Source: a virus | Virus record (IMG/VR): IMGVR_UViG_3300039412_000320 | Direction: 5' to 3' (one strand) | Length of the DNA stretch: 64,000 nucleotides | Shown here: positions 13,991 to 55,674 of the stretch, one piece after another | Layout of the letters: each line of letters opens with the position of its first letter | How positions within the stretch are numbered: the stretch's first letter is position 1 | Made by a program: the position numbers and the translations under genes | Notes under the pieces: model-generated | What the model saw: only the letters and a program-made list of their open reading frames with translations | What the model was told of the DNA's origin: nothing | Databases searched by the model: none

Positions 13991-14424
13991 ACTTCCTCCA
14001 TCCGAAACGGTATAGCCGAGTCAGTTTGTCGTAGAAGTTCAAGATTGTGAATTTGGCTTTCCAAAAGTTCAATCGGGCGAAAAAAGGCTTTAACCCGACT
14101 TAGAAGTTGCTCCCAAGCGAAGGCGATACGCTGCCGAAAAGTGCGGTGTTGCCGCTCAGCATACTGCCGCAATGCCACTTGGTGAGCGTGGAAGGCGTTT
14201 ACAGAGGCGTGCGGGTCTTTCTTGAGGGCATCGTATGCCTTGTTGGTGCAACGGTCGTCAAAGACCCACAGCGTGAGATTTCCGAAATCCTCAAAAAATG
14301 CCCACAAGATGAGGAGAGCGCCAATCATCGTCACGTAAGTCCCATCGGCAAACAAGAGTGCTCCCCCGACCGCTCCGAGGAGCTTTCGGAAAGAGCCGTT
14401 CCGGTCTGTCATTTTGTTCAACAT
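13987..14424 (-). CDS. membrane protein (N-terminal TM segment)
   Basis: LLGAVGGALLFADGTYVTMIGALLILWAFF hydrophobic stretch. Confidence 0.45.
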   Translation of the reverse strand: MLNKMTDRNGSFRKLLGAVGGALLFADGTYVTMIGALLILWAFFEDFGNLTLWVFDDRCTNKAYDALKKDPHASVNAFHAHQVALRQYAERQHRTFRQRIAFAWEQLLSRVKAFFRPIELLESQIHNLELLRQTDSAIPFRMEEV

Positions 14425-16691: not shown

Positions 16692-17296
16692 TTTAGGCTC
16701 CTGAGAGCAGCAGTCATTGCCACCCACTCCTCATAGGTAAACCAACGTCCTTTAGCATAGTTGCACCGCTTGCAGCATACTACTAAGTTCTCTAATGTAT
16801 AGGGTAGTTCATTGTTTTTCCTATCTAGGTTGTATCTGTGCCCACTCCTACTGACATCATATTTCTTCCATGAGACGGGAGCCCCGCAGTAGTGGCAAGA
16901 AGTTACAGATATAAAGGAAAGAAGCTGCTCGTAAGTTAAGTCTAATGGTATGTTTCTATGTTTTGCTGTTTTTGTGAGCAAGATAAAGAGGGCCTCATAC
17001 GGTCTTTTTGAAGCTTTACCATTAGTCCAACGGAAAGAACAGCACTTTGTTCCTCCTCCGGTCATAAGTTGATTGTCAGAAACCGTTTTTGTAGTTTTCT
17101 TTTCACATTGGCATTCACAAAGCCAACGACGGTGAAAACGAGTGTAAGTTGCACATTTATAATGAACAGGAGTGGCGGGAGCAAGGACTCTCCAGTTTCC
17201 GAACAACTGCCCTACCCTGTTCATAGGCAAATGATGACCAAGAGCGAAGCGGTTTTTGACAACCGTCCCGCATCCACATTCACACAAGTTTCCCAT
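16676..17296 (-). CDS. HNH endonuclease
   Basis: Cys-rich N-terminus, HRYNLDRKNNELPYTLENLVVCCKRCNYAKG HNH core. Confidence 0.55.
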   Translation of the reverse strand: MGNLCECGCGTVVKNRFALGHHLPMNRVGQLFGNWRVLAPATPVHYKCATYTRFHRRWLCECQCEKKTTKTVSDNQLMTGGGTKCCSFRWTNGKASKRPYEALFILLTKTAKHRNIPLDLTYEQLLSFISVTSCHYCGAPVSWKKYDVSRSGHRYNLDRKNNELPYTLENLVVCCKRCNYAKGRWFTYEEWVAMTAALRSLKCSTG

Positions 17297-17356
17297 ATAT
17301 AAAGAATACGGTAGTAGTTTTGGCTTGTTCAGGCACCTCTATAAAGGGGTGCATAT

Positions 17357-19843
17357 TTAGCTGGTAGCAGCTTTGGTAGCAGAGGCTTCCTCGTTAACAG
17401 CAACATCTTCGGCGACCAGTACACCCTCGGCAACACGGGTGAAACTAAGGTCTTCGTTGTCTTTATCCACTACGATGAGGTCTCCCATGTTGACTTGTTT
17501 GGTGTTAAGAAAACGGGAAAGCCGCTTCACTACCAGCTTCTCTATTATCCGCTTGAGAGGACGTGCCCCGTTCTTTAAGTCCGTGCCTTGGGTTATCAGC
17601 AGGTCTTTGGCGGCGGGGGTGAACTCCAAGACAAACTGCCGGAGGTCTCGCATCTTTAACACCCGGCTCTGCACCTGTTCGATTTCCAGTTCCACCACCT
17701 GTTTGAGTTGCTTCTTATCCAAGGAGTGAAACACCACTATCTCATCTATGCGGTTGAGGAACTCCGGGGTGAAGCGTTTCTTGGCGGCTTCCAGTCCTGC
17801 TGTCTCCACTTCTTTGTTGAACTCCTCACTGCTCTTTGTGGAAGACCCGGCAAACCCCAATCCACCTCGGGCGAGATATTGCATTTCTCGGGAGCCGAGA
17901 TTTCCCGTCATGATGATGAGGCATTTATCGAAGGTGCTTTGCTTGTTGTCACCCAAGGTAAGTGTGCCTTTGTCAAGTATTCCAAGTAACAAGTTCCACA
18001 GGGCGTCGTTAGATTTCTCAAACTCGTCAAAGAGTAAAAGTGTCAATTTTAACTCTTCGGTGTGGTGGGCATCCAGACTTTCCTGACGTAAGTAGGCTGG
18101 TGTATCCCGGTGTCCTAGATAACCCGGAGGAGAGTTATGTACTTGAAAACAAACCATATAGTATGATTTATCTTTTATGGATAAATCGTACACCATCCCC
18201 TTGTACAGTTCTCGTTCAATCTTTTTTATTCGGGTGTAGATATAGTCATCATCCACATAAGACATACGTTGAATTCCCGAATTTCCCAAGTTTAGAAGGT
18301 TGAGGCTTTTCCCGACTATGCGGAGGTTACTGGCAAACTGTGCTATTTGGTCTCCGGCTACGTATAGCCGGTAACGAGTGGATGCCTTATACCCCCGCTT
18401 ATCCTTCGGGTGTTGCTCCTGCATTTGGACTGCGTACCCCAAGTTATGAAGGAGGAATTGTATCTGGAAAGCCAAAGTTTCGGAGCTTGTGGCGTAGTCA
18501 ATGCGGCGGCAAACAGTCTTCCCCCCATCCCCCAAGATTGCCGTATCTAAAAAGTCGTAGGCTAGTTCTGGGCGTAAGTCGGAGACCCACGCTGGAAAAC
18601 GCTTGCGAAGAGCATGGTCACCAAAAAGGTCAGTCATCATAAGACTTATGGGTCGAGAGGAAAGGTATATCCGATAACTGCTCTTTCGCTCTTTCACCCT
18701 TATGTGAACGTCCCCAAACACCCTGTATATAAGCTCTCTCACCTCTTGAATGCACGGGCTGTCCTGCCCGTGTTTTCCGAATGTAAAATTGATGGATTTC
18801 TTGCTTTTGGAGTTTCCACCTTCGCTAACGTAAAATCCGGCCAAGCGCATAAAATCAGAGCTTACAGGTATAAAGCGGGGGAGCTTTTTTTTCGTCGCCG
18901 TTGACCAGATGTCTTTGTTATCAGACTTAAATCTGGGAAGGCCCCTAGTATATTCGGCTAAGTCGAGGGTTACGTCTTGGAGGGAAGATTTATGGCGAGG
19001 GTATACCACTACATCCCCCGCTTTAAGGTCTCCCGCCGCTATATCTTTAAGATTATTCGGTGAGCAAAACGTGCTGAGGAGCCGTCCCCTCTTTGTCGTC
19101 GCCCGGTTTTTCGTGCATGGGTCCTGAATGGCCCTTATTTCATGCCAAGGAGTGCATCCCACGGGTATGTTGGTGTTTCCAGCCGTTAGTTTTACTATTT
19201 CTCCGGCATATTCGTGGCTATGGGTTTCAATAACAGGGTGCGGTTCCCCATTTTCCCCACTTATGCTAGCGTTTTTTTCGACTTTTTCTATAGGTAGAAC
19301 AGTGCCTCCGGGAAACATCACCCGTGTTCCCGTAATGAAACACCCCACCAATTTGGAAATCTCGTGAGAGTGTTGAAATTCTGCACAATCAACTTTTTTG
19401 AGAGCCTTTTTGGTGCCGAAGAGAAGCTCCGCCATTACTTCAATGATGTAGGTCTTCCCGCAACCGGTGGGACCGAGGAATATTAGATTTCCGACAGGAT
19501 GGTCAGGCGGGGCTAAACCAGCACGGAAGGTTTCGTATGCGTCTACGAGTACCTCAATTGCCCGTGTCTGTCCGACGATAAGATGCTTTAGGCTGCTGGC
19601 AAGTTCTTCCTCAGCCTCGCTCTTGATGTTAGGGTCAAGCCGTTTGCACTGCTTTTTAGGCATTCTTGGCACTGCTTCTCGTCTAAGCATCAGGGTAATT
19701 TCCGGTTCCTCATTACATGATAAGTTCCGTAGTTCGTTTCCTATTTGATGCGTAAAATGCACGGGGTGCGCCCATACTGAAACGCACCCCGTTGACTTGC
19801 GGCAGAGAGAAGGGTGCTTTCTTCCTTTCCCTTCAGTTATCAA
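17357..19843 (-). CDS. Clp-family AAA+ ATPase (ClpA/B/C D2-like) interrupted by an intein; true start possibly the internal Met near 19690
   Basis: Walker A GPTGCGKT. SKLVG[intein]SPPGYLG corresponds to the conserved ClpB SKLIGAPPGYVGY. LLLFDEFEK, GARPLKRII ClpB-like C-terminus. Confidence 0.8.
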   Translation of the reverse strand: MITEGKGRKHPSLCRKSTGCVSVWAHPVHFTHQIGNELRNLSCNEEPEITLMLRREAVPRMPKKQCKRLDPNIKSEAEEELASSLKHLIVGQTRAIEVLVDAYETFRAGLAPPDHPVGNLIFLGPTGCGKTYIIEVMAELLFGTKKALKKVDCAEFQHSHEISKLVGCFITGTRVMFPGGTVLPIEKVEKNASISGENGEPHPVIETHSHEYAGEIVKLTAGNTNIPVGCTPWHEIRAIQDPCTKNRATTKRGRLLSTFCSPNNLKDIAAGDLKAGDVVVYPRHKSSLQDVTLDLAEYTRGLPRFKSDNKDIWSTATKKKLPRFIPVSSDFMRLAGFYVSEGGNSKSKKSINFTFGKHGQDSPCIQEVRELIYRVFGDVHIRVKERKSSYRIYLSSRPISLMMTDLFGDHALRKRFPAWVSDLRPELAYDFLDTAILGDGGKTVCRRIDYATSSETLAFQIQFLLHNLGYAVQMQEQHPKDKRGYKASTRYRLYVAGDQIAQFASNLRIVGKSLNLLNLGNSGIQRMSYVDDDYIYTRIKKIERELYKGMVYDLSIKDKSYYMVCFQVHNSPPGYLGHRDTPAYLRQESLDAHHTEELKLTLLLFDEFEKSNDALWNLLLGILDKGTLTLGDNKQSTFDKCLIIMTGNLGSREMQYLARGGLGFAGSSTKSSEEFNKEVETAGLEAAKKRFTPEFLNRIDEIVVFHSLDKKQLKQVVELEIEQVQSRVLKMRDLRQFVLEFTPAAKDLLITQGTDLKNGARPLKRIIEKLVVKRLSRFLNTKQVNMGDLIVVDKDNEDLSFTRVAEGVLVAEDVAVNEEASATKAATS
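18134..19342 (-). mobile_element. Intein (403 aa) with LAGLIDADG homing endonuclease inside the GAPPGYVG motif of the Clp ATPase
   Basis: Starts CFITG (Cys1) directly after LVG, ends VHN followed by S (+1 Ser). Internal LAGFYVSEGG and LDTAILGDGG LAGLIDADG motifs. Confidence 0.8.
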
Positions 19844-40110: not shown

Positions 40111-41031
40111 ATGGAACAATTCAAAAAAAGTGCCACAGCAGAGACTATATATTCCACTGGAGCACAACGAGACAGTCGTATAGGCAAGGGAGCATTTCAC
40201 TGGATGCCCTGGACAGCCGTTAAGATGGTTTCTCGCATCTATGAAATAGGTAACAAACAACGAGACCTTCTCTCAGGTGGAACAGGTAATGGAGACACCC
40301 GTAATTGGGAGAACGGGATGAAGATTGCGGATTTGCTTGATAGCGCTATAAGGCATATAACCGCTCATTTAGAGGGTGACAGAAGTGAACCCCATCTTTC
40401 ACAAGCTATGTGGAACCTGCTTAACGCCCTACAAACATCTATATGGGTATACACCGGACAGAGGCCCCCAGAACTTAATAATCTCCCCGACCATATCCAC
40501 CCTTGGAAGCCGGGAAATCCGTCTCCATGTCCGCTTAGTTCTCAAGAGATAGAGTGGCTAGAAACCTGGGGAATACAAAGGAACGAGTTTCCAGACCTTA
40601 ATGACCCCGTACAAAGTGCTTCTCATCTCGCTGCCCTCGTAGATGGAGAAGGGACCATTTCAATCGTAAAAAGGGAAACAAAGCGCCGGGAGGCTTACCG
40701 TCTATCCATAAGGGTCTATAATACTTCAGAAACCCTCAAAAATTACCTTGAGAAAAGATGGGGAGCGACTACGGTTAGAAGAAAAGGGCGAAGGAAAATC
40801 CACAAGGACTGCTATACGATGATATGGACGAGTTCAAAAGCTGAAGATATTCTTCGTAGGATATGGCCGTACTTAATCATCAAGACCGCCCAAGCAAACT
40901 TGGCAGTGGCTTTTCAAACTTTGGTAAAAAACATCAATCCTGGATGCAAAGGAATACCAGAAAAAACTCTGCAACAACTGCGGTTTATGAAGGAGGAGAT
41001 AAATCGTATGAACGAAAAAGGACCCAAGTAA
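40111..41031 (+). CDS. Fusion of a nucleotide pyrophosphohydrolase-like N-domain with a LAGLIDADG endonuclease domain
   Basis: N-terminal GAQRDSRIGKGAFHWMPW..AIRHITAHLEGDRSEPHLSQAMWNLLNAL resembles the dATP/dGTP diphosphohydrolase N-terminal domain. C-terminal LAALVDGEGTIS LAGLIDADG motif. Confidence 0.45.
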   Translation: MEQFKKSATAETIYSTGAQRDSRIGKGAFHWMPWTAVKMVSRIYEIGNKQRDLLSGGTGNGDTRNWENGMKIADLLDSAIRHITAHLEGDRSEPHLSQAMWNLLNALQTSIWVYTGQRPPELNNLPDHIHPWKPGNPSPCPLSSQEIEWLETWGIQRNEFPDLNDPVQSASHLAALVDGEGTISIVKRETKRREAYRLSIRVYNTSETLKNYLEKRWGATTVRRKGRRKIHKDCYTMIWTSSKAEDILRRIWPYLIIKTAQANLAVAFQTLVKNINPGCKGIPEKTLQQLRFMKEEINRMNEKGPK

Positions 41032-46638: not shown

Positions 46639-47576
46639 TGGAATTCTACGGAAAGCTCAAACAAGCGTTGGTGGAGATTGGGGAGGTTGCCCCCAATAGC
46701 CTGATTCTCGCCTTCGCCTCCGGGAGTTGGCAGCATGGTGCCCGGATGGACGACAAGGCCGACCTTGATGTGTCCGGCGTGTTTGTGGGTCGCCCGGAAG
46801 AAGAACTCCAACTTGACAACGAGAACCCTCGTAAAATGGGTCATGCGAGCGCTAGCACGGCAGGAGACAAGCGCAAGAACACCAAGGCGGACGTTGACAT
46901 CAAAGCTTACTCCCTACGCCGTTGGGCGGGTCTGGCGCTTAAGGGCAATCCTTCGGCGCTTTCCTTCCTGTTTGTCCCGGACAGCATCAAGGACCTATCC
47001 TTGGAGCCAAAGGCACGCTGGTCCTGCCCCTATGATGCGCAGCAGTGTGAGTATCCAAGCTGCATAAGCGACCATGAGGGCTACCGGGACAGCACGTGCG
47101 TGAGGCGTAACCGGGAGGCGCATACAAACACGGTGTGGGACACCATGATTCTGCCCAACACCAATGACTTCCTGTCCGCACGGGCGGCGAAAGCCTTTAT
47201 CGGGTTGGCGGATAACCAGTTCCACCGGATGCTTGGGGAGGGCACGGGTAAGCACGGGACCCGGAAAGCCGAGAAGGAAGAGTACGGCTACGACCCCCAA
47301 GCGGCTATGCACATGATTCGAGGCATCCAAGAATGTCTTGAGCTTTTGCGGACCGGCAGGATGACTTTCCCCCGACCGGAGAAGACCCTCCTGCTTAACA
47401 TTCGCACCGGAAAACTTGGTCTAAAAGAAGTATTAGACCTATATGGGGTTTTACGGAATGAAGTACCCGAAGCAGAGAAGAACACCCCGCTTCCCCCGGA
47501 ATGTGACCGGGATAAGGTCAGCAAGCTCGTCGCCGGGGCCATCGTGAAACATTGGAAAGAGAGGAAGTGGCTATGA
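46638..47576 (+). CDS. Pol-beta-fold nucleotidyltransferase with helical C-terminal domain
   Basis: N-terminal GSWQHGARMDDKADLDVSGVFVG (GS..DxD). Confidence 0.5.
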   Translation: MEFYGKLKQALVEIGEVAPNSLILAFASGSWQHGARMDDKADLDVSGVFVGRPEEELQLDNENPRKMGHASASTAGDKRKNTKADVDIKAYSLRRWAGLALKGNPSALSFLFVPDSIKDLSLEPKARWSCPYDAQQCEYPSCISDHEGYRDSTCVRRNREAHTNTVWDTMILPNTNDFLSARAAKAFIGLADNQFHRMLGEGTGKHGTRKAEKEEYGYDPQAAMHMIRGIQECLELLRTGRMTFPRPEKTLLLNIRTGKLGLKEVLDLYGVLRNEVPEAEKNTPLPPECDRDKVSKLVAGAIVKHWKERKWL

Positions 47577-48034
47577 GGGCAGCGGAAGCAAGGGCGCTCG
47601 CTGAGACCAACGCTGAACGTATTGCTCGGGAGAAAGTGGAGGAGTCCGCCAAGCGCAAGGTTCAGCGGGCGGCTGCGGAAGAGAAAAAGCGGAAAGAGTA
47701 CTACGCCAAAACTCTCGAAGACATTCAATGGCGTATTGACGCCCGTATAAAAGACGGCATAACAAAAATTGAAGACTACCGGCTATCCACGGAGAATTGG
47801 ACTGACCGCCCGCTTGCCGGGGAACAGAAGTTTTTCAAGAATTTTGAGTTCGCTGCCGAGCTAAAGAAAATCATCACCAAGCTACGCCGAGACGGCTACA
47901 AAGTCACGGTCAAAGAAGGGTGGGTGGAGCATGATGACAGTGCCGCTTATTTGAACAGCGGCGGCGAATGCGGCTCCGAGACACCCTACAACATGTATCA
48001 TACTTGGTTGGAAATTTCATGGGAGGGAACCTGA
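47573..48034 (+). CDS. hypothetical protein
   Basis: ATGA overlap, coiled-coil N-terminus. Confidence 0.45.
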   Translation: MRAAEARALAETNAERIAREKVEESAKRKVQRAAAEEKKRKEYYAKTLEDIQWRIDARIKDGITKIEDYRLSTENWTDRPLAGEQKFFKNFEFAAELKKIITKLRRDGYKVTVKEGWVEHDDSAAYLNSGGECGSETPYNMYHTWLEISWEGT

Positions 48035-48286
48035 ATACATTATGGTTCCCACGATGCCGCTTTACTCTAATCCGGTCATTAACTCCAATCGGCTTATCCG
48101 GGGTTACAAAGGAAGTGACGGGTTTGTTGACCGGTGGGAAGTATTTGGACAGCCCTTGAGGTAATACCGGGGATATACGGGCTGAACGGCTAACCAATGG
48201 AAATCAGACAAGTTATCGGGAACTAAAGTTAGGTTCACAGTAAATAAATGGCCGATTAAAAAAATCCCCATATTCTCCCAAAACCG

Positions 48287-48303
48287 TGGTATTATGTAAG
48301 TGA
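48287..48303 (+). promoter_or_regulatory. Extended -10 promoter TGGTATTATGTAAGTGA
   Basis: Same motif as 27424. Upstream aaaaaatcccc tract. Confidence 0.5.
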
Positions 48304-48640
48304 AGGAAGAAAACGAACTACCGACCCTATACTTGTAGGGGTAAAATTGAGGCGGGGAGCCGGACGATATTGTTACCCGGTCAGCCTCACAAGATTCCGG
48401 GCCGAAAGGCCCACCAGTTTGAGGGGGCGAAAGCCCCTACCATTTTACGCCCCGAAAGGGGCACCAGTTTTGGAGAGACATGCGAAATAGGAAACCAAAC
48501 CCGATGCAGTGGCAGCCTAAGCGGCATTTTAGCCGCCCAAGCTTCGGTGGGCTTCCGTTCGCAGGAGTCGCATAGCGAAAAAGCGAACAGAGTGCAAGGA
48601 TGCCCACCGAACTCAAGGTTCTGTGGGCTTTTTTATTTTG
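48296..48640 (+). ncRNA. Candidate ~340-nt ncRNA: three tandem GAAA-tetraloop hairpins each followed by ACCAGTTTT-like tails, ending in an intrinsic terminator
   Basis: gggccGAAAggccc-accagttt, ggggcGAAAgcccc-taccatttt, ccccGAAAgggg-caccagtttt. Bounded by the promoter at 48287 and the terminator at 48603-48638. No credible ORF. Confidence 0.45.
48603..48638 (+). terminator. Rho-independent terminator
   Basis: cccaccgaac-tcaag-gttctgtggg followed by cttttttatttt. Confidence 0.6.
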
Positions 48641-48990
48641 CACTTGCAGTGAATGAGTCGGTGACAACATACGCATAGAGGACGGAGGTTCTCTGGCTGA
48701 TTGTTAGCGTGGTTGTCATCAATGTGATGGATGTCAATCTGGCACGAGCATTTAGCAACAAAGCCGCATTCATCGCAGACTCTCGGGGGGTTTGACTTAT
48801 CTCGGTATGGATGAGAGGGGTAGTTACACCTTCCAGTCCAACGGGCTTGTGAGTTACGGCAAAGATACTTACCACCTTTGAGTCGCACTTTAACATCTCC
48901 ACAGGCGGCACAAAGCCCGGTTTTAGTTTCTTTGTTAACAAAAAGCATTCTATGAATCCACTGTCCCATATTAAAGACAGTGGAAGTCAT
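48613..48990 (-). CDS. HNH homing endonuclease
   Basis: CDECGF..IDIHHIDDNHANNQPENLRPLCVCCHRLIH. Confidence 0.6.
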   Translation of the reverse strand: MTSTVFNMGQWIHRMLFVNKETKTGLCAACGDVKVRLKGGKYLCRNSQARWTGRCNYPSHPYRDKSNPPRVCDECGFVAKCSCQIDIHHIDDNHANNQPENLRPLCVCCHRLIHCKCKIKKPTEP

Positions 48991-49024
48991 AAGATGGGTT
49001 TTTGGGTGGGTTTTTTGCGTTTAT

Positions 49025-49099
49025 GGTGACTGTAACTCAGTGGCAGAGTGCCTGACTGTGAATCAGGATACGGGGGTTCGATTCCCCTCAGTCACCCCA
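49025..49099 (+). tRNA. tRNA-His(GTG) with encoded G-1
   Basis: g-gtgactg/cagtcac, cctga-ctGTGaa-tcagg, ttcgatt T-loop, CCA encoded. Confidence 0.7.
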
Positions 49100-49104
49100 A
49101 GTTT

Positions 49105-49176
49105 GGTGAGTGAACCCCACAGGGTACTCGGTCTGGTCCGAGGGGGCGGGGGCAGCCCACTTCGTCATTCACCCCA
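49105..49176 (+). other. Unclassified CCA-ending structured element (9-bp terminal stem, no T-loop)
   Basis: ggtgagtga...tcattcacc-cca. Internal ctcgg-tctggt-ccgag and G-rich hairpins. Not a canonical tRNA. Confidence 0.3.
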
Positions 49177-49182
49177 ATATAT

Positions 49183-49260
49183 GGTCCCGTAGCTCAGCCC
49201 GTATAGAGCAACTCCCTCCGAAGGAGAAGGTCGTCGGTTAAAATCCGACCGGGACTTCCA
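49183..49260 (+). tRNA. tRNA-Arg(CCG)
   Basis: ggtcccg/cgggact, anticodon loop ctCCGaa, T-loop ttaaaat (atypical). Confidence 0.5.
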
Positions 49261-49266
49261 GATTAG

Positions 49267-49342
49267 GCCCCTGTAGCTCAGTGGACAGAGCGCCCGGTTT
49301 CGACCCGGATGGTCGCAGGTCCGAATCCTGTCAGGGGTTCCA
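49267..49342 (+). tRNA. tRNA-Arg(TCG)
   Basis: gcccctg/caggggt, cccgg-ttTCGac-ccgga, gcagg-tccgaat-cctgt. Confidence 0.5.
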
Positions 49343-49381
49343 AGATTTGAAAACAGTAATTGGACTTCGTAGTCCTTTAGT

Positions 49382-49798
49382 ATGAGGTCTAAGAACTGTT
49401 ACAAATGTGGTAAGGAAAAAGAGCACCGGTCAGCACCATACTGCCTCGAATGCCAGCGAGGCTACAATAAGCAAAACTACGAGAGGAATAAGACCTCGTA
49501 TGTTGAAAAAGCGAAACGGAATGGTGCAAGGTATAGGAAAGAAGCCATAGAGTGGGTCTTACAGTATTTGATGACTCACCCCTGTATCGACTGTGGAGAA
49601 TCTGACCCGATAGTCCTTGAGTTTGACCATCGGGAAGGAGAAAAGAAATTAGCAGCCGTTTCAACTTTAATGACACAAATGAAGGCATCATTAAAGACGA
49701 TAAAGGCTGAGATAGTTAAGTGCGACGTGCGATGCGCCAACTGTCACCGTCGTAAAACAGCGAAAGAAAGAGGTTGGTACAAGATTGAGGCCCCGTAG
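49382..49798 (+). CDS. HNH homing endonuclease inside the tRNA array
   Basis: CIDCGE..EFDHREGEKK..CANCHRRK. Stop codon abuts the start of tRNA-Arg(ACG). Confidence 0.6.
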   Translation: MRSKNCYKCGKEKEHRSAPYCLECQRGYNKQNYERNKTSYVEKAKRNGARYRKEAIEWVLQYLMTHPCIDCGESDPIVLEFDHREGEKKLAAVSTLMTQMKASLKTIKAEIVKCDVRCANCHRRKTAKERGWYKIEAP

Positions 49799-49868
49799 CT
49801 CAGCCCGGACTAGAGCAGCGGTCTACGAAACCGAAGGTCAGTGGGTTCAAATCCCCTCGGGGCTTCCA
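49789..49868 (+). tRNA. tRNA-Arg(ACG)
   Basis: ggccccg/cggggct, gcggt-ctACGaa-accga. D-arm near-identical to Arg(CCG). Confidence 0.55.
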
Positions 49869-50015
49869 AGATTGAGACCACGTGACGCACCCAAAGGGAT
49901 GGCGAGTCTGATGGGTTCGGTGGTAAGCAGGGCACCAGTTCTTCGGAACAGGCGAGGTCCCCAGCTATGCACTTCCCGCCCCTGCGGAGGGCGGTTGTCA
50001 CTGGTCACTGTTTGT

Positions 50016-50089
50016 TGGGATGTCATCCAATGGTAAGATGCCCGGCTGTTACCCGGAGAATGCAGGTTCGAGTCCTGCCGTCCCAGCCA
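50016..50089 (+). tRNA. tRNA-Asn(GTT), short D region
   Basis: tgggatg/cgtccca, anticodon loop ctGTTac, gcagg-ttcgagt-cctgc. Confidence 0.45.
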
Positions 50090-50254
50090 GTTTGAGGTCG
50101 TATGAGCGAGTGTCGCTGGTGTGATGAGGGTCGCCCTTGGTTGGCAGGTTGTGAGGGCAAACAGCACCAGCCGTTGTATGGTTCAGGCGAGCACTCAGGG
50201 ACGATGTGTCATAACAACTCGTCTATATATCCGCCTGAGAAGGAGACAGTTTCT

Positions 50255-50329
50255 TCTGGAGTAGCTCAACGGTAGAGCGTTCGGCTGTTAACCGAATGGT
50301 TGGGGGTTCGATTCCCTCCTCCAGAGCCA
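50255..50329 (+). tRNA. tRNA-Asn(GTT)
   Basis: tctggag/ctccaga (U1-A72), ttcgg-ctGTTaa-ccgaa, ggggg-ttcgatt-ccctc. Confidence 0.65.
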
Positions 50330-50335
50330 AAATAT

Positions 50336-50415
50336 GGAGTCGTGACGCAGATGTGGTTAAGCGTAGCCGCCTTTTAAGCGGACGGTCGTGGGCACCCAAT
50401 CCACCGGCTCCACCA
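50336..50415 (+). tRNA. tRNA-Lys(TTT) candidate with non-canonical T-loop
   Basis: ggagtcg/cggctcc, gccgc-ctTTTaa-gcgga; T-loop cacccaa lacks TTC. Confidence 0.35.
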
Positions 50416-50421
50416 AGATGT

Positions 50422-50498
50422 GCCGCCGTAACTCAACTGGACAGAGTACTCGGCTCTTGCCCGAGGAGTTGGAGGTTCGAGTCCTCTCGGCGGTACCA
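50422..50498 (+). tRNA. tRNA-Lys(CTT) (G37)
   Basis: gccgccg/cggcggt, ctcgg-ctCTTgc-ccgag, ggagg-ttcgagt-cctct. Confidence 0.5.
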
Positions 50499-50503
50499 AA
50501 TTT

Positions 50504-50579
50504 GGGTCGGTAGCTTAACTGGCAGAGCAGGGGCCTCTTAAGCCCAAGGTTGAGGGTTCGATTCCCTCCCGACCCACCA
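50504..50579 (+). tRNA. tRNA-Lys(CTT)
   Basis: gggtcgg/ccgaccc, ggggc-ctCTTaa-gccca, gaggg-ttcgatt-ccctc. Confidence 0.6.
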
Positions 50580-50654
50580 AGATGCTCTTGAGAGCGTATT
50601 ATAGGACTTAAGGTGCTCTCAAGATAATGCCGAGAAGTTTGAAAGTTTGGTTTT

Positions 50655-50731
50655 GCCTCTTTAGCTGATGCGGTGCATAGCGCCCGCCTGAAGAGCGGGA
50701 GAACAGAGTTCGACTCTCTGGGGAGGCACCA
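50655..50731 (+). tRNA. tRNA-Phe(GAA)
   Basis: gcctctt/gggaggc, cccgc-ctGAAga-gcggg, cagag-ttcgact-ctctg. Confidence 0.65.
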
Positions 50732-50737
50732 AGTTAT

Positions 50738-50811
50738 AGCGGAGTAGAGCAGTCAGGTAGCTCGGTTGGCTCATAACCAACAGGCCGCTGGTTCAAATCC
50801 AGCCTCCGCAA
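50738..50811 (+). tRNA. tRNA with CAT anticodon #1 (Met/fMet/Ile2), A1-A72 mismatch, CCA not encoded
   Basis: gagc/gctc D-stem, gttgg-ctCATaa-ccaac, gctgg-ttcaaat-ccagc. Confidence 0.55.
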
Positions 50812-50866
50812 CCTTGATACGCTACAGCGTATTAGCAACAGATATGCGGTGTAGCGTATGGTTTGA

Positions 50867-50943
50867 TGCGGGGTATAACTCTGGTGAGTTTCGGAGTCTC
50901 ATAAGCTCTGTAAAGGTGGGTTCAATTCCCATCCCCGCTACCA
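50867..50943 (+). tRNA. tRNA with CAT anticodon #2, U1-U72 mismatch
   Basis: ggagt-ctCATaa-gctct, gtggg-ttcaatt-cccat, acceptor gcgggg/ccccgc. Confidence 0.5.
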
Positions 50944-50947
50944 TCTT

Positions 50948-51024
50948 AGGGTTGTCTTGTAGCTCAGCGGAAGAGCGACCGGGGTACCGGGAGGTCGGTG
51001 GTTCGATTCCACCCATGCAACTCA
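50948..51024 (+). pseudogene. Degenerate tRNA-like element (good D- and T-arms, no acceptor pairing, aberrant anticodon region with palindromic ccggGGTACCgg)
   Basis: gctc-agcggaa-gagc and ggtgg-ttcgatt-ccacc present, but the 5' and 3' ends do not pair. Confidence 0.35.
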
Positions 51025-51140
51025 AGCCGTACGTGAGTGCCCCTTAAAAGGCCATTGTTTGGGCGGCGTAATTGTCGGGTAACATACTCATGGTGTGGCG
51101 CAGCGCAACCATCATGGCTCCCAAACACCACGTACGTTCT

Positions 51141-51215
51141 GGCTCGCTAGTTCAGTGGCAGAACGCCGCTCTCATAAGGCGGATGTCACAGGTTCGATTC
51201 CTGTGCGAGCTACCA
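51141..51215 (+). tRNA. tRNA with CAT anticodon #3
   Basis: ggctcgc/gcgagct, ccgct-ctCATaa-ggcgg, acagg-ttcgatt-cctgt, CCA encoded. Confidence 0.65.
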
Positions 51216-51371
51216 AGTTATGGCGGAAGCATACTGGACTGGCAAGGCTAACCGGTTTGAGTATGTGGGCTGAGGCCCGAGAGGTGAAAACCTCCCATTG
51301 TCCGTCACCGTTTGGAGGTTGACGAGTACTGGCTCTGATTAGCTGGGGGAGTACTGCCAAACCTCCATTAT

Positions 51372-51446
51372 CAGGTCCTAGCATAATGGTAATGCCCTAG
51401 TCTGGGGGACTAGTGATTGGCAGTTCGACTCTGCCGGACCTGACCA
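51372..51446 (+). tRNA. tRNA-Pro(GGG)
   Basis: C1-G72 acceptor caggtcc/ggacctg, ctagt-ctGGGgg-actag, gcat/atgc D-stem. Confidence 0.7.
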
Positions 51447-51483
51447 AAGTTTACGGGCTGTAGCTGAACGGCCTAACTTGTGC

Positions 51484-51558
51484 CGGGGCGTAGGGTAACG
51501 GTAACCCACTTGCTTTGGGAGCAAGTCGTTGGAGGTTCAAATCCTCTCGCCCCGACCA
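51484..51558 (+). tRNA. tRNA-Pro(TGG)
   Basis: cggggcg/cgccccg, cttgc-ttTGGga-gcaag, ggagg-ttcaaat-cctct. Confidence 0.7.
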
Positions 51559-51602
51559 AAAATATCACTCCGACCAATCTTCTGACTTCAGTATCTATTA
51601 GT

Positions 51603-52193
51603 ATGAAGAGTCAAGAAGTTGGTGGAGTGAATGTAAGACTTCCACACATCTGCAAAAAATGTGGGAAGGCATTAACTGAGGACGGTAAGAACTTCCCAAC
51701 ACGTTGGTCTAATGGGAATAAGTATTACCGATTTCTATGCCGTATTTGCTTTAATAAGCATAACAAACGTTGGAAACCTCGACATGGAATGACCGAGGGG
51801 GTTTACGAGCGAAGGAAACAGACTCTAAGCACCCAAAGGTATAAAGGCGAAGCAAGGCATGTTACAAACGACTGCAAGAGTTGGGATAAACGCCATGGGT
51901 TTGCCTGCGACCTTGACCGGAACTACGTAGCTGCTCTTATATCCACTGGCTGCCGATACTGTGGAGTAACCCAAAGAGAACTACGCATTGGGTTGGACCG
52001 ATTAGATAACATGCGGGGTCATTTGAAAAGTAACGTAATTCCCTGTTGCACAAGATGTAACATTGTTCGAGGAAATATGCCCTACAAAGCGTGGTTACTA
52101 ATCGCTGATACAATGCGAAAAGTTAGGGAGCTTGGGTTATTTGCGGATTGGGTTCCGGGAAATAAAAGCAAAGATTATTCCGGGGTCGTCTGA
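51603..52193 (+). CDS. HNH-family homing endonuclease inside the tRNA array
   Basis: CRYCGVTQRELRIGLDRLDNMRGHLKSNVIPCCTRCNIVRGNM. The longer ORF from 51480 overlaps tRNA-Pro, so the start was moved to MKSQEV. Confidence 0.55.
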   Translation: MKSQEVGGVNVRLPHICKKCGKALTEDGKNFPTRWSNGNKYYRFLCRICFNKHNKRWKPRHGMTEGVYERRKQTLSTQRYKGEARHVTNDCKSWDKRHGFACDLDRNYVAALISTGCRYCGVTQRELRIGLDRLDNMRGHLKSNVIPCCTRCNIVRGNMPYKAWLLIADTMRKVRELGLFADWVPGNKSKDYSGVV

Positions 52194-52203
52194 TTTAAAT
52201 TTT

Positions 52204-52282
52204 CGGTGTGTAGCTCAGCCCGGTTTAGAGCACTCCGTTCGGGGCGGAGGGGTCGGGAGTTCAAATCTCCCCACGCCGACCA
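52204..52282 (+). tRNA. tRNA-Pro(CGG)
   Basis: cggtgtg/cacgccg, ctccg-ttCGGgg-cggag, gggag-ttcaaat-ctccc. Confidence 0.7.
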
Positions 52283-52334
52283 AGATTGATTTATACGTCA
52301 AGTTTACCCCTCTGGGGCTAAAAGTTGACGTAAA

Positions 52335-52409
52335 TAGCAAGATATTCCAGAGTCCTCTAACGGTAGGAGAACCGGCTCTGACCCGGTTAATGAGAGGTTC
52401 GAGTCCTCC
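52335..52409 (+). tRNA. tRNA-Gln(CTG) candidate (U1-A72)
   Basis: accgg-ctCTGac-ccggt perfect anticodon arm, ctct/ggag D-stem. The acceptor has two mismatches. Confidence 0.45.
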
Positions 52410-52460
52410 CCTCGGAGCCAAGCTAGCCCGGAAAATGTGGGTTCGAGTCCCACCGGATAA
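52410..52460 (+). pseudogene. tRNA 3'-half fragment (T-arm plus 3' acceptor only)
   Basis: gtggg-ttcgagt-cccac-cggataa with no 5' half upstream. Confidence 0.4.
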
Positions 52461-52519
52461 TCGCATGGAGTAGCCTTCCCGTCAGGCAGAACGCCCCCAG
52501 CGACCCGTCATTCAATGGT

Positions 52520-52655
52520 AGGATACCGGGGATTGATTCAGGGAGAAGGTTGCGGGTTCGAGTCCCGTCGCCCCGCCATGCGGGGCGTAGCTCAATGGTA
52601 GAGCGTCTCCCATGATGCAGCCGGAAAAACGGGGTTCGAGTCCCCGTAGGACATG
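52520..52655 (+). pseudogene. Cluster of tRNA fragments / degenerate tRNA
   Basis: T-arm gcggg-ttcgagt-cccgt + cgccccg, then ccatg, then cggggcg-ta-gctc-aatggta-gagc with no pairing anticodon arm, then another T-arm cgggg-ttcgagt-ccccg. Repeated catggta motifs. Confidence 0.4.
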
Positions 52656-52749
52656 GTACAGCGTAGCCTCATGGTAGCTGTGACCAAGATAACCATGGTA
52701 CTCTTGGTCTTGACCTTCGTTTATTTGGATAAGACACCGGCGTGAGTTT

Positions 52750-52839
52750 AGGGGTGACGGGCAATCTGGTTCGGCCCAGCGGTCTCCAAAACCGTCTTCC
52801 TTCGGGATACTGGGGGTTCAAATCCCTCCACCCCTGCCA
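52750..52839 (+). tRNA. Class II (long variable arm) tRNA with CCA anticodon
   Basis: aggggtg/cacccct, gcggt-ctCCAaa-accgt, 16-nt variable arm cttccttcgggatact, ggggg-ttcaaat-ccctc, CCA encoded. Confidence 0.5.
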
Positions 52840-52914
52840 AGATTCTAATGTAAATTTTTGGTGCAGATAGAGTCTCCAAATCTACGCTATGCAACTCATA
52901 TATTGGAGGATTGT

Positions 52915-53259
52915 ATGGCGACAGAAGCTTGGAAAACATCTCATCAAGAAGAAATGAAAGCATACAGGAGAAAACATTATCAAAATCACAAAGAGCCATA
53001 TCTTATCCGAGCAAAGAACCAAAGGAAAGAAATTAGAGATTGGTTCAAGGAGTTCAAACGCTCTCTAAAATGTGCTCGTTGCCCGGAAAATCATCCTGCA
53101 TGTTTAGATTTTCATCATAGAGATTCAAGCAAAAAAGACATGTCAATAAGGCAAGCTGTGAACCAAGGTTGGGGAAAGAAACGAATCCTTGCTGAGATAA
53201 GAAAATGCGAAATACTATGCTCTAACTGTCACAGGAAGGAGCACCATCCTGAAATTTAA
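52915..53259 (+). CDS. HNH homing endonuclease
   Basis: CLDFHHRDSSKKDMS..LCSNCHRKEH. SD ggagga before the ATG at 52915. Confidence 0.6.
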   Translation: MATEAWKTSHQEEMKAYRRKHYQNHKEPYLIRAKNQRKEIRDWFKEFKRSLKCARCPENHPACLDFHHRDSSKKDMSIRQAVNQGWGKKRILAEIRKCEILCSNCHRKEHHPEI

Positions 53260-53269
53260 TTATTCGTTT

Positions 53270-53880
53270 GTTTCTCAATCTCTGTGGTATTACCAAGAAT
53301 GGCGTGCAAGGTCCCGTAGGGTCGGCAAGACTGATGGGAACGGTTGTCGTGGCAGAAATCGGGATACCGTGCCTGCACAAGCGGCTTCCGGGCGACGAGG
53401 GGGACCGGTCATTAACCCCGTAGAAAGCGAAGCCAAACCGCCAGTACGCTGGCTGCACGCCGTTGGGTTTAAGTTGGTGCTCCTGACCGACCTAAGTCTC
53501 TGGTGAGTTGACATAACCGGGGGCGATGTCTTAAGGGCGTGGTCACAGGGGCGCTGTTCGGGCGGGGTGAGAGCGTTAGGACAACGCAGTGGGCCTCGGG
53601 GTGAGACACCATAAGAAACCCGACCACATCAACCCGTATGGTGTACGGCAATGAGACCGGCCAATTCGATGGATATGAACCTGAGAGAAGACCGGTTACA
53701 CCCCGCCCAAACCCTAAAAGCTTGACTCGCCGCCTAGTCCTATGGGCGGATACCGGAGTGCGAAGAGCGATGGACGGCTATAGGGGTCGTGCGCAGGCTT
53801 ACCGGCAATTAGCCATCGATCACATTCGGTGTGGCAACGAGCGAGGATTAACGGTTTTCCGAATCTTAGATAAGGAGGCT
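53270..53880 (+). other. ~600-nt GC-rich non-coding region (candidate structured RNA), unclassified
   Basis: Only short overlapping low-complexity ORFs on both strands. The strong SD for the HNH gene lies at its 3' end. Confidence 0.3.
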
Positions 53881-53882
53881 CT

Positions 53883-54434
53883 ATGGGATACGCTGACGTA
53901 CTTGTACTAGACATGAACTGGATACCCGTGGGCTTCATGGGCTGGCAGAACGCCGTCAAGCTCTGGTTCGAGGACCGTGCCAAGATTGTCAAGGAGGACG
54001 AGGGCGGGAAGGTCCTGCACTCACCGTCCTTTGAAATGGGCATGCCAAGGGTGATAGTCGTTCGCAACGCTTGGCATCGCCGTAAGAAGCAGTCCGTCCC
54101 CTGCACCCGGCGCAACCTGTTAGTGCGTGACAATGCAACATGCCAGTACTGCGGCAAGGTGGTCCACACCTCGGAATACACGATTGACCACGTCATCCCG
54201 CTTTGCCAGAAGGGCAAGTCCGACTGGGACAACCTTGCCATCGCCTGTATGCCGTGCAACAAGGAAAAGGCCGGACGTACCCCGGCGCAGGCGGGCATGA
54301 CCTTGCTCAGCAAGCCCTATACGCCGAAGCCCACGGACCCCCGCTTCAACTTCAAGCTGCATATCAGCAAGATAAGGAACGAGTGGAAAGATTACGCACC
54401 GTACCTATACTGGAATGTTGTACTTGATAAATGA
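53883..54434 (+). CDS. HNH endonuclease
   Basis: CQYCGKVVHTSEYTIDHVIPLCQKGKSDWDNLAIACMPCNKEK. SD aaggagg. Confidence 0.65.
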   Translation: MGYADVLVLDMNWIPVGFMGWQNAVKLWFEDRAKIVKEDEGGKVLHSPSFEMGMPRVIVVRNAWHRRKKQSVPCTRRNLLVRDNATCQYCGKVVHTSEYTIDHVIPLCQKGKSDWDNLAIACMPCNKEKAGRTPAQAGMTLLSKPYTPKPTDPRFNFKLHISKIRNEWKDYAPYLYWNVVLDK

Positions 54435-54467
54435 ACTACTTACCCCATTCATTGAAGGAGAGTTTAA

Positions 54468-55265
54468 GTGGAGCCATATGGGGAAGTATACATTATCGTA
54501 AACCAAGTCAACAACAAGGTATATATCGGGCAAACCATAAGAACCCTGCACGAGCGATGGCTGGCTCATTGTAGGAGAGCCAAAGCGGGTGGGACAAATT
54601 GTGCATACTTCTATAATGCCATCCGAAAATATGGAGAAGGTAGCTTCAAAGCCTATCGTATAAATGTTGCCTTCTCCAAAGAAGAATTGGATACCCTTGA
54701 GGTCTCCTATATTGAAAAGTTTAAGGCGTGCGACCCTGAATATGGATACAACTCAACTCTTGGAGGCGGAGGGGTAGTTGCGAATGAGGCTACTCGTCAA
54801 AAATTCAAAGAGGCGAACAAAGGCGAAAGAAATCCAATGTTTGGTAAGCATTGTTCAGAGCAGACTAGACAAAGGATGAGTGCCTCCCAAAGGGGACACT
54901 CAGTCCCAGAAAGCACTAGAAAGGCTGTTGCAGAATCAAACAGGAGAAGAGCTGGAAAACCACAAGCTCCCCACAAGTCTGGCTGGAAACACTCCGATAC
55001 CAGTAAGCAAAAAATGCGGGAAGCATTAAAAGGAAGAACCTCGGCTTGGAATAAAGGCAAAAAAATGCCAGAAGGCTTTGGTGAAAAAATAGCCAAGGCA
55101 AAGCGTGGGAAACCACGACCGGTGCATGTAATAGCAGCCTTGAGGGAAGCTAATAGAAAAAGACCACCTGTGCGCTGGTTATGTAAAGATGGCGTAGCAA
55201 TCAAAATTGCGGCATCCGAAGTTATTAACCGCCTCTGTGATGGTTGGAGGCTAGGAAGGAAATAA
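54468..55265 (+). CDS. GIY-YIG homing endonuclease with NUMOD-like repeats
   Basis: EVYIIVNQVNNKVYIGQTIRTLHERWLAH. Repeated R(N/H)P..GK and SGWKHSDTSKQKMREA motifs. Upstream ataaatgaact motif. Confidence 0.7.
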   Translation: MEPYGEVYIIVNQVNNKVYIGQTIRTLHERWLAHCRRAKAGGTNCAYFYNAIRKYGEGSFKAYRINVAFSKEELDTLEVSYIEKFKACDPEYGYNSTLGGGGVVANEATRQKFKEANKGERNPMFGKHCSEQTRQRMSASQRGHSVPESTRKAVAESNRRRAGKPQAPHKSGWKHSDTSKQKMREALKGRTSAWNKGKKMPEGFGEKIAKAKRGKPRPVHVIAALREANRKRPPVRWLCKDGVAIKIAASEVINRLCDGWRLGRK

Positions 55266-55674
55266 ACAAGTTTACGCCCCCGTGAGCGGAGATGGACATC
55301 GCAACAGTTTCCTAAACTGTCTATGCCGAAAGGCATCGCAGGTTCGAGTCCTGCCGGGGGTACCAAATTTACGGGGGAATCGTCTAACGCAAAAGGCACC
55401 CGTCTTCTAAACGGGCAATCCGGGTTGGACTCCCGGTTCCCCTTCCAATTCCCAAGGAACACCATATGCTGCTCGATTGCGATAAGCGAAACGTGAGGGT
55501 CGTAGCCTCCTTGAACGATGCCAAGGGGCACTCGGAGAACCTCGGGCGTGTCGTATGGGCGCAGGTAGACGACCGCCCGGAGTGGCTGTACAAGGTCTAC
55601 CCTGGAGGGCGGGTAATCCAGTACCCCGTGGCGAAGACCTGGACGAAGGGTCGCCCGGAGGGATTGGAGACCGC

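Follow-up and report, generated by a model that had tools for sequence, protein, structure and literature searches.

The 64,000-nucleotide stretch of viral DNA analysed here (IMG/VR record IMGVR_UViG_3300039412_000320; hereafter the window) looks like a part of the genome of a very large phage. It contains 27 transfer RNA (tRNA) genes in two same-strand arrays (positions 29133-30692 and 49026-55447), among which HNH and GIY-YIG endonuclease open reading frames (ORFs) are scattered. The subject of this work is the stretch 48287-48640, which is located shortly before the second array, with an RlaP-family nucleotidyltransferase gene ~0.7 kb upstream of it; the features of the element and of this array lie on the + strand. 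The original prediction for this stretch was a promoter-to-terminator unit for a non-coding RNA (ncRNA), whose business end consisted of three hairpins with GAAA tetraloops, each followed by an ACCA-U tail. The promoter-to-terminator unit is real and conserved, but the hairpins are present in only two of the seven homologous sequences that were compared, and the part that is conserved, as judged from the sequences, is a short, translated-looking ORF together with a terminator/antiterminator pair abutting the tRNA array. Based on these results, all of which are computational, the region 48287-48634 is probably a cis-acting leader of the second tRNA array, viz. a ribosome-mediated transcription attenuator of the trp/his type.

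The homologues come from two sources. A degenerate pattern of two hairpin units picked out two metagenome contigs that carry the element, L009 and L015 (the latter is identical with the contig of a 237-kb IMG/VR genome), and further contigs were fetched using protein homologues of RlaP as anchors. The resulting set comprises seven distinct sequences (the window, L015, L059, L062, L071, L073 and L075), all from uncultured jumbo-phage contigs, which were obtained from peat and wetland samples. Among the RlaP-anchored contigs, L059 and L062 join the subfamily of the window, and L071, L073 and L075 form a second, diverged subfamily. In each of the seven sequences nhmmer finds one copy of the element per locus, located 0.4-6 kb downstream of the RlaP gene, and in all of them the same order is seen, viz. 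a sigma-70-like promoter, an RNA of ~190-370 nt and an intrinsic terminator. The first tRNA of a same-strand array lies no more than ~10 nt from the terminator in five of the seven homologues; the exceptions are the window, where an HNH gene is inserted, and L062, where ~460 nt lie in between. The element of the window is 94% identical to that of its closest relative, the corresponding value for flanking protein-coding DNA being 87%. No DNA match to the element was found in GenBank phages, and the RlaP matches in these phages were below 30% identity, indicating that there is no cultured relative among them. Scans with a tRNA-His pattern and with core patterns revealed no additional lineage, and a profile-based RlaP scan added two loci, both without tRNAs and without the element.

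The conserved core of the element is an ORF of 29-36 codons, which an ORF check recovered in every homologue. In the window this ORF, present in the mechanical ORF list, has 31 codons and ends with the stop codon TAG (48480-48575; MRNRKPNPMQWQPKRHFSRPSFGGLPFAGVA), and it is preceded by a Shine-Dalgarno-like GGAGAG (48472-48477) that ends a few nt before the start codon; in L071 and L073 an AAGGA is found 7-8 nt before the AUG. The leader transcript thus has the short reading frame, complete with start codon and ribosome-binding site, that is expected of an attenuator. According to the original prediction the region held no credible ORF; the sequence comparisons indicate, however, that this ORF evolves like a coding sequence. 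Between the window and L015 all three differences within the first 27 codons are synonymous, and over all pairs in the window's subfamily the ratio of synonymous to nonsynonymous changes is 26:27 in frame versus 6:48 and 11:40 out of frame, with 4, 5 and 9 variable sites at codon positions 1, 2 and 3, respectively. The ORF is ended by an aligned TAG in three of the four closest sequences, L015 stopping earlier on a TAA, and in the aligned ORF region of L071, L073 and L075 the indels are multiples of 3 nt. The 102-aa ORF at 48370-48678, which had been named as the coding alternative to an ncRNA, shows no conservation: L015 carries a frameshift in it, and L059 and L062 lack its 5' third.

The codons of this ORF correspond to the tRNA genes that follow it. 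Codons 2-17 (48483-48530; CGA AAT AGG AAA CCA AAC CCG ATG CAG TGG CAG CCT AAG CGG CAT TTT) can be regarded as a "test track" for the array at 49026-55447, in which the 19 tRNA genes that would be regulated, as identified by ARAGORN and Rfam, are interrupted by homing-endonuclease ORFs and comprise His, Arg (five), Asn (two), Lys (two), Phe, Met (three), Pro (three), Gln and Trp, the Arg anticodons being CCG, TCG, ACG, CCT and TCT and those for Pro being GGG, TGG and CGG. Fifteen of the 16 codons are decoded by tRNAs of the window's own array, against a background of 0.318 (P = 3.8e-7), the background being the share of codons in the phage's long genes that are read by the array tRNAs (32%). 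The track includes three different Arg codons and three Pro codons, and a fourth Arg codon, CGC, is found at codon 19. The matches to the own array are 16/16 in L015, 15/16 in L059 and 14/16 in L062, and for the tracks of the window's subfamily, with backgrounds of 0.29-0.34, the P values range from 4e-8 to 2e-6; in the second subfamily 10-11 of the 16 codons are matched, with P of about 1e-3 to 1e-4. The nonsynonymous changes mostly swap among amino acids that are served by the array, e.g. HFS to NNF to NHF. Further, the leaders of the second subfamily are without a Pro codon, and Pro and Phe tRNAs are absent from the array stretches covered.

Between the ORF and the regulated genes lies an intrinsic terminator (48602-48634), whose presence the original prediction had recognised, although with slightly displaced coordinates. 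It consists of segment 3 (GCCCACCGAAC, 48602-48612), the loop UCAAG, segment 4 (GUUCUGUGGGC, 48618-48628) and the U-tract UUUUUU (48629-48634), i.e. an 11-position stem with 10 pairs and one C-U mismatch, a 5-nt loop and U6, and due to the stem mismatch it is missed by a simple terminator scanner. In the relatives the U-tract is a few nt from the first tRNA, and across the homologues the stem has changed in a compensatory manner (CCCACCG/CGGUGGG, GGCCCGCCG/CGGCGGGCC, CCCUAGCC/GGCUAGGG and CCCCAACC/GGUUGGGG). The candidate antiterminator strand, segment 2 (UUCGGUGGGC, codons 22-25, 48543-48552), is complementary at 10 of 10 positions to 48602-48611. In all seven homologues the best upstream complement of the terminator 5' strand is the homologous site inside the 3' part of the ORF, and the complementarity, which involves the terminator 5' strand or its flank and has lineage-specific extensions, amounts to 7-11 bp in every one of them, even though the paired sequences differ between the subfamilies (CGGUGGGC:GCCCACCG in one, GGGUCUG:CAGACCC in the other). 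The predicted duplexes between segment 2 and the terminator (-14 to -26 kcal/mol) are better than 97-100% of shuffles. Alternatively, segment 2 pairs upstream with the codon track to form a long irregular hairpin of ~85 nt, the 5' strands of which constitute segment 1 (48481-48514; UGCGAA, GGA, CC, CCG, GC and UGG); this pairing is found in 99% of cells versus 35-52% with the partners slid (RNAalifold, pair counts). Two smaller hairpins accompany this arrangement. An apical hairpin inside the ORF (GCGGC-AUUUUA-GCCGC, 48521-48536) shows a C-G to A-U change in L059 and L062, and a linker hairpin (GUUCGC...GCGAAC, 48557-48588), seen in the folds with UCGC-AUA-GCGA as its inner part and the stop codon in the inner loop, has a compensatory variant in L015 (GUUUGCG/CGCAAAC); the 5' strand of the linker hairpin doubles as the 3' strand of a closing helix with UGCGAA.

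The behaviour of these alternative structures was assessed by thermodynamic models, in which the ribosome was represented as a block of 30 nt. In the window there is little difference in energy between the terminator fold (-60.2 kcal/mol) and the antiterminator fold (-59.2 kcal/mol). When the ribosome block is included, the antiterminator has the lowest energy with the A site at codons 4-14, and also at codons 2 and 17 and at the stop codon; from codon 15 to codon 31 it is the terminator that is favoured, with few exceptions. In nascent-RNA folds of ten leaders, comprising the seven homologues and the leaders of three other arrays, segment 2 captures segment 3 unless the ribosome is over codons ~18-29. 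The antiterminator and the terminator are thus predicted to be mutually exclusive, with the switch at about codons 15-18, a position that coincides in the folds with the end of the array-matched codons. The distance from the stop codon to the terminator stem is 25-32 nt in all ten leaders.

The leaders of the three other arrays follow the same logic. One of them is in the window, before the Tyr/Leu (four)/Ser (three) array. Its ORF (28993-29079; MKNLSSNSLSYSSSLLLSGLVLPDGWDG) uses all six Leu codons, its terminator (GGCGGC-UAACAA-GCCGCC-U6) ends 6 nt before tRNA-Tyr (29133), and a long hairpin at ~29048-29108 overlaps this terminator; the leader as a whole (28993-29127) is unrelated in sequence to the leader with the ORF at 48480-48575. 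An HNH-like ORF is located directly upstream of it, due to which its promoter was not located. The other two precede tRNA-Ser arrays of four genes in L073 and L075, where Ser-run ORFs are found (MKNTLSISTSSSSSSSSG... at 2099-2191 in L073, leader region 2099-2248; MNNTSTISSISSSSSSSRR... at 7335-7415 in L075, leader region 7335-7474). These contain runs of 8-10 Ser codons, in which all six Ser codons are used in L073 and five in L075; in addition, the L073 leader has a TTA codon and the array a tRNA-Leu(TAA), and the L075 leader has two ATA codons and the array a tRNA-Ile(TAT). In both cases the terminator has a complement inside the ORF (GGUGGC:GCCACC and GACGGC:GCCGUC), and a TATTAT box ends 6 nt before the AUG, which suggests that these mRNAs may be leaderless. 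The codon-array match of the three leaders has P values of 5e-6 to 6e-11, and in the comparison of the own array with the other array of the same phage, the matches were 20/30 vs 3/30 and 14/27 vs 5/27. Hence, the leader codons are cognate to what the operon supplies, this is replicated in the nine leaders other than that at 48480-48575, and the cross-test is negative.

From the conservation, the coding signature, the codon-anticodon match, the complementarities and the positions of these features we infer that the ORF is translated, that a ribosome can stall within it and that its location sets the direction of the switch. According to the proposed mechanism, the host RNA polymerase would start at the sigma-70-type promoter and transcribe the structured 5' untranslated region (UTR) and then the leader ORF, whose codons 2-17 would act as a composite sensor for the Arg, Asn, Lys, Pro, Met, Gln, Trp, His and Phe tRNAs encoded downstream. 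If these charged tRNAs are plentiful, the ribosome would run on and cover segment 2, in which case segment 3 would pair with segment 4 and transcription would stop at 48629-48634, before the tRNAs. However, scarcity of even one sampled tRNA would make the ribosome stall within the track and leave segment 2 free to pair with segment 3, and the polymerase would then enter the tRNA array. The outcome would be a supply of tRNAs on demand, with negative feedback. A suggestion in the original prediction that the region could hold attenuation signals was therefore close to the mark, but the conserved switch lies downstream of the hairpins and not in them. A broader proposal, which we put forward only tentatively and consider rather doubtful, is that each tRNA array in this jumbo-phage clade is gated by its own codon-resolved leader-peptide sensor, which in addition to homeostasis would serve as an inducible counter-defence, with the GNRA-hairpin module of the window's lineage tuning ribosome loading on the sensor. 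In such a case, host-imposed depletion or cleavage of tRNAs (by anticodon nucleases or in starvation responses) might lead to stalling on the matching codons and thereby switch on the replacement tRNAs.

Several observations do not fit easily with an attenuator of this kind or limit the strength with which it can be argued. The homologues are related and belong to one uncultured clade, so that their P values are not independent. The Shine-Dalgarno sequences of the window's subfamily are weak or lie close to the AUG. The AAA codon at position 5 is without a Lys-UUU tRNA in the window's array, the L062 leader has a His codon and no tRNA-His was detected there, and the Thr, Ser and Gly codons in the leaders of the second subfamily are unmatched in the visible part of the array. 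Most pairs of the long hairpin are invariant in the subfamily and the shuffle control was not significant (86/500); the scarcity of covariation can be ascribed to the coding constraint under which this sequence also stands. Further, in full-length folds of several homologues the terminator persists at every ribosome position, and the nascent RNA favours the antiterminator even without a ribosome; since equilibrium folds are a rough guide, kinetic assumptions underlie both the direction of the switch and its default state. The T4-like Citrobacter phage Ci1, in which tRNA arrays are found near an RlaP-like gene, is without such a leader ORF or terminator. The invariant N-terminus of the peptide (MRNRKPNPMQWQ) also fits a functional micropeptide, and in the window an antisense HNH insertion of 390 nt parts the terminator from tRNA-His.

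The HNH endonuclease ORF (48613-48990, - strand; a weak HNH_3 match), which in the window is placed exactly at the junction of the terminator and tRNA-His, is lacking from L009, L015 and L059, whose terminators reach to within a few nt of tRNA-His, and a leftover terminator 3' half with U-tract (GGGUGGGUUUUUUGCGUUUAUG, 49004-49025, + strand) is found directly before tRNA-His in the window, aligning with the terminator end/tRNA junction of L015. The HNH ORF is thus an insertion that lies outside the ancestral element. The C-terminal codons of the HNH ORF are the reverse complement of the terminator 3' strand.

At the other end of the element, the extended -10 promoter that had been noted at 48287 is present as TG-G-TATTAT (48287-48295; TG at 48287-48288 and TATTAT at 48290-48295), and the position of the -10 box is conserved in all seven homologues. 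The more distant homologues L071, L073 and L075 also have a TTGNNA -35 element, 17 nt upstream of the -10 box. No second promoter-like site was found in a scan of the + strand of 47500-49500, so there is none other before tRNA-His. Transcription is predicted to start near 48302, from which the 5' UTR of the window leader would be ~178 nt long. It contains two hairpins in addition to the GAAA block. The hairpin P-a (CCCU...GGGG, 48325-48341), found by folding, keeps its pairing in L015, where a U-G pair is changed to C-G, and it is not conserved in the more distant homologues. The hairpin P-b (48349-48388) has an outer GAGGC/GCCUC helix, an inner CCGG/CCGG helix and a 13-nt loop ending in GUUAC, and its outer helix shows compensatory changes (GAGGC/GCCUC in the window, GCGGA/UCCGC in L059, GACGG/CCGUC in L062); its absence in L073 and L075 indicates that it is dispensable. 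At the 5' end of the L062 leader (13986-14160) there are ~110 extra nt with GC-rich GNRA hairpins of their own, viz. GGCCC-GGUA-GGGCC and a hairpin with a GAAA loop, as well as a second -10-like box (GGTATTTAG). The presence of this expansion in L062 indicates that structured 5'-UTR expansions recur in different lineages.

The three GC-clamped GAAA hairpins with ACCA-U tails are present as had been described, viz. GGGCC-GAAA-GGCCC (48399-48412) with tail ACCAGUUUGAG in unit 1 (48399-48423), GGGGC-GAAA-GCCCC (48424-48437) with tail UACCAUUUUAC in unit 2 (48424-48448) and GCCCC-GAAA-GGGGC (48449-48462) with tail ACCAGUUUU in unit 3 (48449-48471). The hairpin cores begin at 48400, 48425 and 48450, an exact 25-nt period, and each hairpin is followed by (U)ACCA(G/U)UUU; the copies are too diverged to be called as a repeat by Tandem Repeats Finder. 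The 64-kb window contains 6 GC4-GNRA-GC4 hairpins vs 1.2 expected (both strands) and 2 matches to the full hairpin-unit pattern vs 0.02 expected, and the folding energy per hairpin is -10 to -11.6 kcal/mol. In L015, hairpin 1 reads GGCCC-GCAA-GGGCC, a compensatory swap of pairs in which the loop is still of the GNRA type. The block sits in the 5' UTR and ends at the Shine-Dalgarno sequence. The third tail (CCAGUUUUG) is complementary to codons 2-4 (CGAAAUAGG), a pairing that would put the Shine-Dalgarno sequence and the AUG in a 10-nt loop, and the energy of this local hairpin (48464-48491) is -5.3 kcal/mol in the window and -5.5 kcal/mol in L015, despite a 1-nt deletion in the latter. However, the array of three hairpins is lacking in L059, L062, L071, L073 and L075, and in L059 and L062 the hairpin P-b runs straight into the ribosome-binding region, the block of ~80 nt being gone. 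Thus, the three hairpins together form a 5'-UTR insertion of ~80 nt that is restricted to the window and its closest relatives, and its sequence changes indicate that the hairpins are selected to stay hairpins, yet are dispensable for the function of the family. It is conceivable that they stabilise the 5' end and/or organise or modulate the loading of ribosomes, which is a guess on our part.

The search for the hairpin unit in other phages, which had been suggested together with the original prediction, found it in the related contigs L009 and L015, but it is missing from five of the seven homologues, and the pattern scans showed it to be limited to the close lineage of the window. In viral contigs the hairpin-ACCA pattern gave 0 hits and then 3, consisting of the two known relatives and an unrelated contig, L022; in metagenomes it gave 18 hits, of which those in L009 and L015 only were real; and in genomes it gave 34 hits, all of them chance matches within genes. 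In L022, an 8.8-kb viral contig, two hairpins each followed by GUACCAUUUU are found in an intergenic end region (60-130, - strand), and the likeness of this repeat to the hairpin-ACCA-U units is superficial, with no other similarity between them. A possible tetraloop/receptor interaction of the GAAA loops was also considered and dropped; inspection of the sequence revealed a CCUAAG at 48515-48520, but the UAUGG partner is absent.

The hairpins nevertheless have to be considered when alternatives to an attenuator are weighed, as they were the basis for viewing the element as a free-standing structured ncRNA, in which the hairpin-ACCA units would either draw off a tRNA 3' end-binding factor, as its sponge or decoy, or signal processing. 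The element does have its own promoter and terminator and some covarying helices, the hairpins are strongly non-random and kept by compensatory change, tRNA genes and RNA-repair genes such as that for RlaP are nearby, and, in accord with the fold check that had been proposed, 48287-48640 is more stably folded than its shuffles (z = -4.4). No known RNA family matches it: the Rfam scan gave no relevant family on 48150-48750 down to E = 10, the tRNA and T-box models included, and over the whole window and four homologous loci only tRNA-clan models (tRNA, tRNA-Sec) reached the gathering score. This absence of a family, together with the failure of ARAGORN to find a tRNA or tmRNA gene within 48287-48640, equally leaves the resemblance to a tRNA 3' end and the sponge or decoy without support. 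The acceptor/T minihelix of a tRNA is far longer than the 5-bp stems seen here, and the ACCA motifs are internal, which is not what is expected of a tRNA-like element or NCCA mimic. Since, moreover, the hairpin array is absent in most homologues, whereas the core that all of them share carries coding-type substitutions, 3-nt indels and codons that track the downstream tRNAs, a free-standing ncRNA is in our view very unlikely. A related proposal, that the three hairpins are themselves the regulator, either as tandem pause or termination signals or as sites for a phage protein timing the expression of the tRNA array, draws on the regular spacing of the units, on their GNRA loops and conserved tails, on their location immediately before the ribosome-binding site and on the ability of the third tail to sequester the Shine-Dalgarno sequence and AUG. 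However, the hairpins were rejected as intrinsic terminators because the U-runs begin 4-5 nt past the stems, which is generally not the geometry of such terminators, no candidate binding protein was identified, and the block occurs only in the window and its closest relatives; due to this, we attach hardly any probability to this proposal.

Two other possibilities concern the conserved core itself. The ORF could encode a functional basic micropeptide, e.g. one binding RNA or tRNA, which is merely co-transcribed with the tRNAs through an ordinary, leaky terminator; its 12 N-terminal residues are invariant in four sequences over synonymous changes, and the peptide is very basic. A micropeptide would leave unexplained why unrelated leaders rich in Ser, Leu or Tyr are in step with other arrays, why replacements are among array-served amino acids, and why the 3' part of the ORF is complementary to the terminator at a constant spacing of 25-32 nt, and we consider it unlikely. 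The core could also be a ligand-, protein- or tRNA-binding riboswitch similar to a T-box, in which the long hairpin is the aptamer and the features of the ORF are incidental. The ~85-nt irregular hairpin with conserved internal loops and the choice between terminator and antiterminator would suit a riboswitch, and the location before tRNA genes makes the sensing of tRNA attractive. However, no T-box or riboswitch model scores even at E = 10, the substitutions are codon-like, and conservation of amino acids and codons accounts for the conserved loops. An aptamer in the core had also been rejected on the ground that two apparently co-varying unpaired positions (A/C and C/U) are synonymous third-codon positions. 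As the two sequence-unrelated families of leaders share only the ORF, the codon match and the terminator logic, a riboswitch appears to us highly improbable. An attenuator governed by translation of the leader ORF is the explanation under which the above features are understood here.

The gene content around the element provides some additional observations. The two arrays of the window are sorted by type: the array at 29133-30692 contains only Tyr, Leu and Ser tRNAs with a long variable arm (class II), and that at 49026-55447 contains His, Arg, Asn, Lys, Phe, Met, Pro, Gln and Trp tRNAs. In the first of these, the gene at 30606-30689 is assigned as tRNA-Sec by Rfam, marginally (47.1 bits, gathering 47), and as tRNA-Ser(CGA) by ARAGORN; it is probably just a long-arm Ser tRNA. 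In L015 (8757-8830; L009 7172-7245) ARAGORN reports, between Pro tRNAs, a tRNA to which it assigns no type and whose anticodon has two bases (tt). The stretch of ~460 nt from the terminator to the first tRNA-Arg in L062 (14366-14826; L072 6140-6600) is G-rich and unannotated, and a weak tRNA-like match of 22 bits is found at 14492-14564 of L062. A short HisRS-like ORF (PF13393, 167-191 aa) is located in the array just upstream of tRNA-His, and an ArgRS-like ORF follows the array in L073 (the coordinates of the HisRS-like and ArgRS-like ORFs, listed together, are 15422-15925 in L071 and 17019-17594 and 20013-20846 in L073). Upstream of RlaP, the relatives encode Thg1 (tRNA-His guanylyltransferase) and a dATP/dGTP diphosphohydrolase (coordinates for the two: L059 1-413, L062 1609-2397, window 40111-41031). 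The diphosphohydrolase ORF of the window has an additional weak match to LAGLIDADG, which might be an intein or endonuclease insertion.

To our knowledge, little is known about how phages control their own tRNA genes, and we are aware of phage tRNAs being treated usually only as a matter of codon usage or of escape from tRNA-targeting defences. A full-text literature search found no paper in which tRNA genes, of phages or of bacteria, are connected with leader peptides or attenuation. If the interpretation presented here is correct, this would be the first case known to us of classical attenuation governing tRNA genes, with a composite sensor for many codons in place of one, and it suggests that phages may deliver tRNAs on demand and with feedback. 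Such leaders could then be used as small, naturally occurring reporters of how available particular charged tRNAs are. A practical lesson is that strongly conserved, well-folding "non-coding" stretches adjoining tRNA arrays should be checked for tiny ORFs before they are called ncRNAs.

In comparison with known systems, the element is best described, by analogy, as a known mechanism, leader-peptide attenuation, applied to tRNA genes and seen so far in one uncultured phage clade. The attenuators of amino-acid operons in Enterobacteria, viz. trpL, hisL, leuL, thrL, pheL and ilvL (represented in Rfam by models such as His_leader and Trp_leader), similarly have a short ORF rich in regulatory codons, an intrinsic terminator just before the regulated genes and a segment that pairs either upstream or with the terminator 5' strand as decided by the position of the ribosome, and the Ser-run leaders of L073 and L075 look very much like hisL. 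However, the genes that would be regulated here are 19 downstream tRNA genes and not biosynthetic or synthetase genes, the track of the window is composite, covering nine amino acids and at least 14 codons with several isoacceptors in place of a run of one codon, the antiterminator strand belongs to the ORF and precedes the stop codon by ~20 nt, and the element is phage-encoded, with no sequence or Rfam similarity to His_leader, Trp_leader, Thr_leader or Leu_leader. In the pheM attenuator of E. coli pheST, the Phe-tRNA synthetase is controlled by the rate at which its own cognate codons are translated. This resembles the present case in that a component of the translation apparatus is controlled through the translation speed of cognate codons, but a synthetase protein gene is regulated there and one amino acid is sensed, compared with tRNA genes and many codons here. 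A Phe-rich leader of E. coli pheU/pheV was considered as a precedent and rejected, as in MG1655 the promoters directly abut the tRNAs and no leader is seen. T-box riboswitches likewise read the tRNA pool through a leader RNA that chooses between terminator and antiterminator; in contrast to the present element, which scores nothing on the T-box model and has a coding signature, they bind uncharged tRNA directly, by the specifier codon and the T-box bulge, and no translation is involved. The small stable RNAs rnaC and rnaD of phage T4 are also non-tRNA RNAs that adjoin the phage tRNA genes and are co-transcribed with the T4 tRNA cluster, but they are not known to be coding or to have a terminator/antiterminator behind them. 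Lastly, leaderless poly-Cys short ORFs are reported to act as attenuators in mycobacteria (bioRxiv 10.1101/834739); these share with the Ser leaders of L073 and L075, which may be leaderless as well, the use of a short ORF with a run of one codon as the sensor, whereas their setting is bacterial cysteine metabolism, and the leader in the window has a 5' UTR of ~178 nt and would control phage tRNA genes.

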